Positions 50,759 to 53,396 of a stretch of DNA of 64,000 nucleotides are shown here, in pieces (the stretch's first letter is position 1; each line of letters opens with the position of its first letter). This DNA comes from Giardia intestinalis (taxonomy: Eukaryota): NCBI GenBank assembly GCA_000002435.2, contig CM018793.1; one strand, written 5' to 3'. The position numbers and the translations under genes were made by a program. Under the pieces are notes generated by a model that was not told the origin of the DNA, made no database searches, and saw only the letters and a list, made by a program, of their open reading frames with translations.

Positions 50759-52933
50759 TCATGCCTTCCCTCTGCATATGAACCACCAGCAGAGGAAGCC
50801 CACAAGGCCAGCCACGACAACCACCACAGCGACGGAGATACCTGCTATGGCGCCTGTGCTGAGGCCGCTTCTGCTGCCCCCGCTGGGCTTGGTGGACACG
50901 CACGCCTCACCCTCCAGCCTGTAGTCGTCCCCGCACTGGCCGCACTTGTTCTCCTCGCTGCACCTGATACACCCGTCGATACTGCAGGCGATGCACTGGG
51001 AGCCGTCTGTGTTCGGCCTCTTGCCCCCCTCTGTGCAGGCGGAGCACTTGTTGTCCATATCACAGTGTGAGCATCCAACAACGGCACATGCGAAGCACCC
51101 GCTCCCAGCCAGGTTGGGCTTGTTGTTGGCGCTACACGCTGTGCACGTGGCGGGGGCCATGCCAGGAGCCTCTAGCGCTGCTGGGGCCGTGCATGCTGTG
51201 CAGCCATATACCCCCACATATGCCTTAGCGGTGCTGCCAGCCCCTATCACTGTGCCAAGGGGGTTCTCGCAGGCCAGGACAGACTGATCAGTATTGGATG
51301 CCCCCGGGACCAGAAAGTACCGGCCGTTCTCGCTGGGGGCGGTGCACCTCCCTCCCTCGGCAGTCTTGCACATGTGGCTGCCAGGAGCCTTCTGAGTACT
51401 GTAGCAGCCGCCCATGTACAGGAAGAACCCGGCAGCACACCGGGTGCAGACGCCGTTCTCGCAGGTGTTGTCACCCTTAGTTCCTGTGCAGACGCCATCG
51501 ATGGGGAACGTGGCGGGGTCTCCGCACAGCGAGCAGTACTGGGAGAACGCCCCGGCGCTGTCAACGACGGTCGCCCCGCAGGTCCCAGACGTCCCCCCGC
51601 AGGCCGTGGGGTCCTCGCAGGCCTTTGTGCACTTCACCGGATTGGTTCCCTCCTTGCGATAGTTGAGCTTACAGGAGTTGCAGGTCAACGAGCCAGCGAA
51701 GGTGCACGTTGCACACCCATCGACTCCATCTGTCGGGTTATCACAGGGGACGCATGTGCCGGGGGAAGTGCCCCCTCTCAAGAAGAACCCGGTCTTGCAG
51801 GTTTGGCATTTGGTCTTGTCAGCTTTCTCAGAGCAGGTTGCGCAGTTCTCGCCACAGGCGTCACATGTGAAGCCGCTGTTGGTGTTCTTGATGTACCCCT
51901 CCAGGCACTCTGTGCAGGTCGGCGGTGTGGCGCCAGTCCTCGAGCACTTCTTACAGCCGACGATGCCCTGGTTCTTCTTCTCTTGCTCTGTCACTGTGTC
52001 GCTGCATAGAATACACGCTGTTGCGTCGTCTTTCATGAATAGCCCACTATCGGTGGCTTTGCAGCCGTCGTCTGTCTTTTCCACGCACGTCGTCGTCCCG
52101 TCGGCAGCAGTTCTTACCAGCTTCCCGTTACAATCGGTGCACCTCGGCTTTCCCGTGGCGTCACTATATTCGCATGCCGCGCACCCAGCTATGTCAGTAG
52201 CGCAGGCCTTGCACTCGTCTGCTTTTGGGTCTGCATAGCTATCACTACCACATCCACCAGCCTCTACACACTCAGTGCCCTTCAGGAACTTCCCCCCAAG
52301 GCAGGCGGTGCACTGGGTCGGCGTAGCAGACTCACACGTCAAACAGCCGGGTCCGCATTGCACACATGCACCATCCTTCGTAGCGTACCCTCCTTGGCAT
52401 GCAGTGCACGTGGCAGCCCCTGTACCGCCACCTGGCGCCGTGCATGTGTAGCAGCCCGCCACCCCCGTGACTCCGTCTCGCGGAGTGACGTCTGAGCAAA
52501 GCACGCACTCGTTGCCAGGGGCTACTGGGCTGGCCGGGTTCTGGAATAGATACGCGGCGCCTGCCTTGCAGGTGGTGCACACCCCCTTGTCGGCCGCCGT
52601 GCAGATCTCAGACCACTGGCTCGTCTTGTAGCACCCGCCCATGAAGAGGAAGTACCCGTCCCCGCACTTCCCGTAGGCAGTATCCGAGCCCGCCAACGCG
52701 GTCCCGTCTGCCCTGGTGCACCCGGCCGCCGCGGCCTGGGGGGAGCCGGGGGGCCAGCAGAAGCCGCCGACCGGGACGCCCCCGGCCCTGCACCCGGTGC
52801 AGATCTCGGAGTACCCGACCGTCTCGCACTTATCGGTCTGGCAATTCGCGGCATGGTCTCCGTCTGGCTGACAAGGCGCCGCGAGTGTGACTGCAAGCGT
52901 GGTTCCTACACACAGCAGTGGGTGCCGCCTCAG
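50759..52933 (-). CDS. Variant-specific surface protein (VSP). The 645-aa Cys-rich ectodomain, TM and CRGKA tail are intact, but the expected initiator ATG is CTG.
   Basis: The C-terminus ...[31 protein letters not shown] is followed by TGACTTAGGTAGTAAAC. There are dozens of CXXC motifs and GGCY motifs. The frame stays open upstream through a signal-peptide-like (L)[21 protein letters not shown]... to a TAA at about 53051 with no in-frame ATG. The codon where Met is expected is CTG (plus-strand cag at 52931-52933), and the upstream sequence is GC-rich rather than A-rich. Confidence 0.7.
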   Translation of the reverse strand: [724 protein letters not shown]

Positions 52934-53396
52934 AGGGTCCGCCTCCGCCGCCCGCTGTGTACCGAATGTTGTGCTTGCAATGGGGAGTGCATGTTGAGAT
53001 GTGGTCGATAGGCGCCCTGTAGACCCTGTGGTGGGCGGCGCTCGGCCTTCTTAGAAGCTATGCTCCCAGTAGATGGCTACAGTGAGCAAGCCCTGACTCG
53101 TCTGGCTTCAGTTCCGTACGTAGTTTATTGCTCAGTCGATTGTGAACAGCCCTTGAGGCCCGGTGCCCTAATCCGGTATTGGGGATCTGACTATGTAACA
53201 CGCCACTGAAGTAGAGTGGGTGTTTCCAAAAGCGCGTGACTTGATGCAACTCTCCAGTGCATCGGTTCGCCCTACCACGGGGATAGCCGGGGCTGGCCTG
53301 GACATGGCTTTTCTCTCGTACCGATCAGTTCACAGGTTTCCTTCTTATGTTTACAACATACTAATAAATAAGCCAAGCCAGTCCTAGGCACACCGC

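Follow-up and report, generated by a model that had tools for sequence, protein, structure and literature searches.

Adam et al. 2010 (PMC2996952) proposed early on that vsp genes of Giardia intestinalis without an ATG are pseudogenes. Under the later rule of Xu et al. 2020 (PMC7000408), a variant-specific surface protein (VSP) without a proper signal peptide or start codon is a pseudo-VSP, and the totals for the WB isolate under this rule are 133 VSPs and 208 pseudo-VSPs. Giardia VSP mRNAs begin at or beside the initiator (Inr) and the ATG, and the VSP initiator PyAATGTT is carried by 135 of 136 WB VSPs. The stretch analysed here, called the window throughout, comprises 64,000 nucleotides of chromosome 5 (4,018,654 bp) of G. 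intestinalis WB (ATCC 50803). Its minus strand carries a long VSP-like open reading frame (ORF), which is very probably a non-functional VSP pseudogene with a body kept similar to functional paralogs. The locus is already known: it is pseudogene GL50803_0050130, one of the 208 recorded WB pseudo-VSPs.

The open frame and its annotation

On the minus strand, 763 sense codons follow one another without a stop between the TAA at 53053-53051 and the TGA at 50761-50759. The earliest in-frame ATG is codon 137, at 52642, which agrees with a preliminary description of the locus as a frame that stays open upstream with no ATG before an internal Met. The Pfam VSP family (PF03302) matches the ORF with E = 1e-37. 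The ORF has 30 CXXC motifs and a cysteine content of 12%, it ends as VSPs do in a C-terminal transmembrane (TM) helix with CRGKA behind it, and the extended poly(A) signal that VSPs have just 3' of the stop, ACTYAGRTAGTRAAY, is represented by GACTTAGGTAGTAAACGCGC. The ATG-started N-terminal signal peptide of a VSP is missing. VSP homology combined with the lack of a proper start codon or signal peptide places the ORF among the pseudo-VSPs as Xu et al. 2020 (PMC7000408) define them.

Three proteins match the window exactly: GL50803_006139 (KAE8306011), a NEK kinase (KAE8306012; window 48418-50334, plus strand) and a high cysteine membrane protein (HCMP) EGF-like (KAE8306013). KAE8306012 and KAE8306013 are numbered consecutively, and thus no protein is annotated between the NEK kinase and the HCMP. 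The pseudogene entry for this interval is found in Table S7 of a preprint by Rodriguez-Walker et al. 2022 (bioRxiv 10.1101/2022.03.07.483299), where GL50803_0050130 is given as NC_051860.1, pVSP, 2127 nt, ORF = N, signal peptide = N. The sequence of the entry begins ctcgcggcgccttgtcagccagac, includes the variant DTAYGKC and corresponds to window 52885-50759; both its start and its 2127-nt length agree exactly with the window ORF. Within the table text that was covered, the identifier appears in Table S7 and in Table S6, the latter giving its poly(A) motif. One of the possibilities raised at the outset, that of a promoter-less, initiation-dead VSP copy, is supported and coincides with the existing annotation as a pVSP. 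The 2007 annotation has at this locus only a 99-aa "VSP", XP_001705253.1, which is the last 99 codons of the frame.

The features of the locus are listed below with the evidence for each; DH is an assemblage A2 isolate and ENA stands for a metagenome contig, both of which are taken up in the next section.

50759..52885, minus strand: body of pseudogene GL50803_0050130, from CTC GCG GCG CCT (LAAPCQ...) to TGA (Table S7 match, alignments, PF03302)
52886..53050, minus strand: upstream open extension of 55 codons, with no ATG and no clear homology to any VSP 5' end (translation, paralog comparison)
52921-52886 for the first 12 codons, minus strand: hydrophobic pseudo-signal peptide of 14 residues, the final LA lying within the annotated body (translation)
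52919..52921, minus strand: CCA aligned with the initiator ATG of the paralogs, all three bases being different (alignment)
52931..52933, minus strand: CTG, four codons 5' of the homologous Met position, kept in the DH and ENA copies (sequence, alignment)
53051..53053, minus strand: in-frame upstream stop TAA, which is TAG in the syntenic DH copy (sequence)
52673..52675, minus strand: TAC (Tyr) for an otherwise invariant CXXC cysteine, DTAYGKC versus DTxCGKC, private to the window copy (alignment)
50762..50851, minus strand: VSP TM helix (25 residues, 50851-50777) and CRGKA tail (50776-50762) (sequence)
50741..50760, minus strand: GACTTAGGTAGTAAACGCGC, the extended polyadenylation signal of VSPs, which overlaps the stop (sequence, Table S6)
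53054..53396, no strand: intergenic region between the pseudogene frame and the divergent HCMP, duplicated with both genes and free of PyAATGTT (contig alignments, motif scan)
53397..58454, plus strand: High cysteine membrane protein EGF-like, KAE8306013.1, 1685 aa, the head-to-head neighbour in the same duplicated module of HCMP and pseudo-VSP (exact protein match)

The 5' end in working paralogs and in other isolates

The closest relatives of the ORF came from a protein search, and the DNA of the WB paralogs was available as the first ~400 nt of each in the preprint supplement. The closest functional relative is GL50803_0041401 (P0124), with about 94% amino-acid identity to the window ORF. 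It reads taATGTTGCTGATTGCATTGCACCTTGCGACAAGCATA followed by CTCGCGGCGCC, which encode MLLIALHLATSILA followed by APCQ. GL50803_00111732 (P0002) is one base off GL50803_0041401 in this 5' stretch (GTG for GCG) and encodes MLLIALHLVTSILA followed by APCQ. Both functional paralogs can therefore be written as taATGTTGCTGATTGCATTGCACCTTG, then T or C, then GACAAGCATA up to CTCGCGG, where the window has caCCACTGCTGTGTGTAGGAACCACGCTTGCAGTCACA up to CTCGCGG; beyond this boundary the window continues with CTCGCGGCGCC. Identity to the functional paralogs is 34/36 just 3' of the 52885/52886 boundary and 15/36 just 5' of it. This homology boundary is sharp and coincides with the annotated start of the pseudogene. 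The identity of 15/36 with the signal-peptide codons of canonical VSPs barely exceeds what chance would give (shuffle P about 0.02) and so fits both an old, diverged signal peptide and an unrelated sequence.

The Met codon of GL50803_0041401 and GL50803_00111732 aligns with the CCA at 52921-52919 of the window, four codons 3' of the CTG at 52933. A CTG in frame at 52933-52931 had been noted earlier, and it is indeed there, but the alignment moves the expected Met position away from it. Nor is the initiator a single base away from ATG, as had been thought: the whole segment of signal peptide and initiator is different, and the CCA is three bases off. What looked like a textbook signal peptide has only LL...LA in common with the canonical MLLIALHL[V/A]TSILA, and its mean Kyte-Doolittle hydropathy is 1.83 versus 2.2-2.4 for the canonical peptides. 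Of the in-frame codons, 14% are a single base away from ATG, with six among the first 59, so that a CTG nearby is expected by chance and is uninformative. Nothing similar to the replacement 5' segment occurs elsewhere in the 64,000-nt window, and the N-terminus that it encodes is absent from the 140 collected proteins, except for P0121 and P0128.

PyAATGTT (YAATGTT), which marks working VSPs, was not found on either strand between 50759 and 53400; GL50803_0041401 and GL50803_00111732 both carry it as TAATGTT. The flank is GC-rich, with an A+T content of 20-23% in positions -30..-1 of the CTG and of the neighbouring candidate positions, versus an average of 58% in the 19 other ORFs of the window that begin with an ATG, the starts being taken there as called. 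The absence of an A-rich promoter, which the preliminary description had pointed out, is borne out by these values. As VSP mRNAs begin at or beside the initiator and the ATG, the window copy would have nothing from which transcription or translation could start.

The same 5' end is found in other isolates. The syntenic DH contig, AHGT01000044, is 96% identical over 3.3 kb and has the same NEK kinase and HCMP flanks. It keeps the CTG, the CCA and the upstream sequence of the WB window, and a 1-bp deletion in a C-run of its VSP frame results in 18 in-frame stops. A second DH locus, AHGT01000026, which is head-to-head with a 1686-aa HCMP, and the independent ENA metagenome contig have the same ATG-less 5' end with CTG and CCA, and both match the window intergenic region up to the HCMP start. 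Across the ENA contig and the two DH loci, the aligned stretch of 5' end and intergenic region is nearly identical. A WB pseudogene, GL50803_00d111732, has the window segment from 52918 on as its beginning (ctgctgtgtgtaggaaccacgcttgcagtcaca), the CTG and CCA not being covered. Within the ~400 nt that are readable, no other difference separates d111732 from its partner 111732 or d41401 from its partner 41401.

At least three HCMP EGF-like paralogs lie on WB chromosome 5, and by accession order two of them adjoin VSP 111732 and VSP 41401. Judging from these alignments, the ATG-less 5' end and the divergent HCMP together are a module of ~7-8 kb that is present at several loci in both WB (A1) and DH (A2). 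The picture is of a unit of HCMP and start-less VSP that would be older than the A1/A2 split or would have been spread by conversion. The window HCMP (53397-58454, plus strand) has at least two paralogs there, under the accessions KAE8305808, KAE8305956 and KAE8305957. The annotation divides the HCMP near VSP 41401 into a 420-aa N-terminal fragment and a second protein of 1238 aa, which suggests a frameshifted copy.

Several assembled contigs end within this locus. Position 1 of the DH contig AHGT01000153 equals window 52886, exactly at the breakpoint, and the contig gives no 5' information. All Logan short-read contigs with the NEK kinase run ~420 bp beyond the stop codon of the kinase and break off at the conserved 3' end of the VSP. 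Short-read contigs stop right at the boundaries of paralog homology, namely the breakpoint 5' of the VSP body and the conserved VSP 3' end, and they independently mark the limits of the repeated unit. At 52948-52946, where WB has GCG, AHGT01000026 and the ENA contig have GTG, and prokaryote-style gene callers took this codon as the start of the database proteins P0128 and P0121. The N-termini of these two proteins are annotation artefacts and provide no evidence for a real N-terminus.

Origin of the start-less copy and alternative explanations

By combining these comparisons, it is possible to propose how the locus arose. From the last two signal-peptide codons (LA/APCQ, 52885) to the stop, the ORF is a near-complete VSP copy. 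On the 5' side of 52885, where working VSPs have the PyAATGTT, the ATG and another 11 codons of the signal peptide, the sequence is a different one, which would have come about either by recombination or through long divergence outside a converted tract. This ATG-less 5' end would be old and would then have been copied together with the HCMP EGF-like gene. Recent duplication or segmental gene conversion with GL50803_0041401 and GL50803_00111732 has most likely held the 2.3-kb frame open.

The VSP body has traces of both decay and exchange. Eight residues of the window copy are absent from its six relatives. One of them is C126Y (TAC 52675-52673), which leaves 30 CXXC motifs versus 31 in all six relatives. 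The ectodomain is accordingly not fully intact, contrary to the preliminary description; the TM helix and the CRGKA tail, for which the same was said, are. Three of the eight residues belong to TEGG, in a patch, TEGGKRPN, that is common to paralog P0005, which indicates that the patch was probably imported from another paralog. The copies diverge in a patchy manner, individual 150-nt blocks being between 81% and 100% identical. WB d41401 has AAYQ where the others have APCQ.

Three observations weigh against a pseudogene. The 763-codon frame is open in WB and is also open in the ATG-less copies of AHGT01000026 and the ENA contig; the upstream extension encodes a hydrophobic, signal-like peptide; and the ratio of nonsynonymous to synonymous substitution rates (dN/dS) lies at 0.27-0.41 when the ATG-less copies are compared, a value that resembles coding constraint. 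These dN/dS values were rejected as a sign of translation, since tracts converted from functional paralogs would leave the same pattern. The indexed Logan short-read assemblies had no match for the HCMP, for VSPs P0002 and P0124, or for eight alternative gene calls or small ORFs of the locus, and the 5' end was judged from other isolates and paralogs. The openness of the frame is most likely due to duplication or conversion rather than to translation, as far as the comparison of the copies can tell.

A dead gene might nevertheless be of use, as a silent donor or acceptor cassette or as a source of VSP-homologous silencing RNA. This explanation is compatible with a pseudogene; it is possible, although we consider it doubtful. 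With a donor cassette in mind, the copies were compared in blocks, the DNA of the WB paralogs again being ~400 nt each, and the blocks of 81-100% identity together with common patches, one of them common to a third paralog, may be read as mosaic, patchy divergence. The twins of VSP and pseudo-VSP are near-identical 3' of the sharp 5' boundary, and recombination or segmental conversion between VSPs and pseudo-VSPs has been proposed for both G. intestinalis and G. muris (PMC7641422, PMC2996952). However, mosaicism proves exchange, and neither selection nor donor status, and the pseudo-VSPs of G. muris were reported to be essentially untranscribed (PMC7641422). A role of the locus as a silent sequence reservoir in VSP diversification is thus speculative.

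Much less probable is a working VSP that is translated from a non-AUG start (the CTG at 52933, 52918 or 52915) and has an alternative signal peptide conserved between A1 and A2. The long open frame and the 14-residue hydrophobic stretch immediately before the mature APCQ would fit such a protein, as would the retention of the 5' end in at least four copies and dN/dS values of 0.3-0.4. Against it, the CTG at 52933 is not homologous to the initiator, near-cognate codons are as frequent as given above, and neither an Inr nor an A/T-rich promoter is present. The 36-nt segment and the PyAATGTT position have a different sequence and not a point-mutated one, which leaves the earlier suggestion of non-AUG initiation without support. 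The changes among copies in the 5' extension are few and mostly nonsynonymous (A>V, D>G, V>A and T>A versus one silent), the syntenic DH copy is frameshifted, and a conserved cysteine has been lost (C126Y). Both reference annotations have the locus as a pseudogene, and a literature search on non-AUG initiation and ribosome profiling in Giardia gave nothing relevant.

A variant of this proposal, slightly less probable still, takes the ATG-less 5' end as the conserved alternative front of a small subfamily of VSPs adjacent to HCMPs, common to several loci of A1 and A2, with non-AUG initiation on transcripts from the divergent HCMP promoter. If this were true, a class of VSPs with an alternative front would escape the Inr-linked control by which one VSP is expressed at a time.

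A start codon in an upstream exon, joined by cis- or trans-splicing, is hardly credible. Giardia introns have a GTATGT 5' splice site and an ACTRAC branch point fused to the 3' splice site. No known Giardia intron departs from the fused motif or from its spacing (PMC6679479). A GTATGT at 53361-53356 and a phase-0 ACACAG at 52960-52955 are both present, and the product of their joining would have a signal-peptide-like N-terminus of 25 residues. However, the fused branch point and 3' splice site, CTRACNNNNAG, is absent from 50759-53400, all 11 matches in the window being elsewhere; the sole ATG 5' of the GTATGT reaches a TAG after four codons, so that no open ATG exon precedes it; and a single GTATGT per ~400 nt is unremarkable. 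An intron with an upstream exon was rejected on these grounds.

The notion that the gene is intact and appears to lack its ATG through an error of sequencing or assembly, or through a polymorphism specific to WB, draws on the CTG being one base from ATG and on the poor assembly of VSP regions, with short-read contigs breaking at the locus, but it is refuted by three independent non-WB sequences (AHGT01000044, AHGT01000026 and the ENA contig) with the same CTG, CCA and 5' segment and by WB d111732, which has the same segment from 52918 on, and even with an ATG restored at 52933 the gene would lack an Inr and have an N-terminus that is not canonical.

The locus is of small significance beyond a tidy annotation. 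The sharp 52885/52886 boundary, together with a start-less front that accompanies an HCMP in several copies and in two sub-assemblages, makes it a clean example of VSP bodies being homogenised and their 5' control regions not. In a GC-rich VSP family, a long open frame with a CTG nearby is not evidence of non-AUG initiation.

Neighbouring regions and described pseudo-VSPs

The syntenic DH contig AHGT01000044 is non-collinear with WB beyond the 3' part of the HCMP. Its positions 1016-1211 match window 59363-59557 over 196 bp in the opposite orientation and ~1.6 kb away, and from 1213 onward it aligns with the window from 57709 downward. The HCMP of this DH locus has 1463 aa versus 1685 aa in WB. 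The non-collinearity suggests that one of the isolates has undergone a rearrangement or deletion, or that the DH assembly is at fault here.

Two other cysteine-rich regions lie on the plus strand of the window. The first, at 20165-21956, is a GC-rich (about 60%), VSP-like region with overlapping frames at 20165-21004 and 20922-21956. The ORF at 20922-21956 matches the Pfam VSP family with E = 1.5e-35, and no TM helix or CRGKA follows in frame; the region looks like another frameshifted cysteine-rich pseudogene. The second, at 59697-61433, is a cysteine-rich ORF of 578 aa with a weak Pfam VSP match (E = 1e-11). The ORF begins with an ATG and is hydrophobic at its N-terminus, and it has no C-terminal TM helix or CRGKA; it is possibly a secreted or truncated cysteine-rich protein.

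Among the described systems, silent archives of antigen genes that serve in gene conversion, such as the psiVSP arrays of G. muris and the VSG pseudogenes of Trypanosoma brucei (PMC7641422) resemble GL50803_0050130 in being start-less and in their mosaic similarity to expressed genes, whereas the window copy lies outside a telomeric array. VSP switching in G. intestinalis is described as epigenetic in PMC2996952, and conversion into an expression site is not a known driver of it.

The three ATG-less vsp genes of PMC2996952 share with the window copy a conserved 3' end with CRGKA, an internal position, the lack of an in-frame ATG and the interpretation as pseudogenes. Their coding regions are short, with 224-902 bases after the upstream stop, compared to 2.3 kb of open frame here.

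GL50803_00d111732 and GL50803_00d41401, the chromosome 5 pseudo-VSP twins of 111732 and 41401, belong to the same gene family and have the same poly(A) motif (GACTTAGGTAGTAAACGCGC). The first of them also shares the ATG-less 5' segment ctgctgtgtgtaggaaccacgcttgcagtcaca. The window copy differs from both in that no 'd' twin or partner with an identical body was seen for it and in its private changes, such as C126Y.

The WB pseudo-VSPs as a whole (PMC7000408; bioRxiv 10.1101/2022.03.07.483299) have the same VSP homology, CXXC motifs, TM helix, CRGKA and poly(A) signal, and likewise no start or signal peptide. Most of the start-less ones are said to be truncated at the 5' end and to lie in arrays, on scaffolds that are not part of the assembled chromosomes, or close to the ends of chromosomes. 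GL50803_0050130, in contrast to such a typical pVSP, is internal to its chromosome, solitary and essentially full length, and it stands head-to-head with an HCMP.

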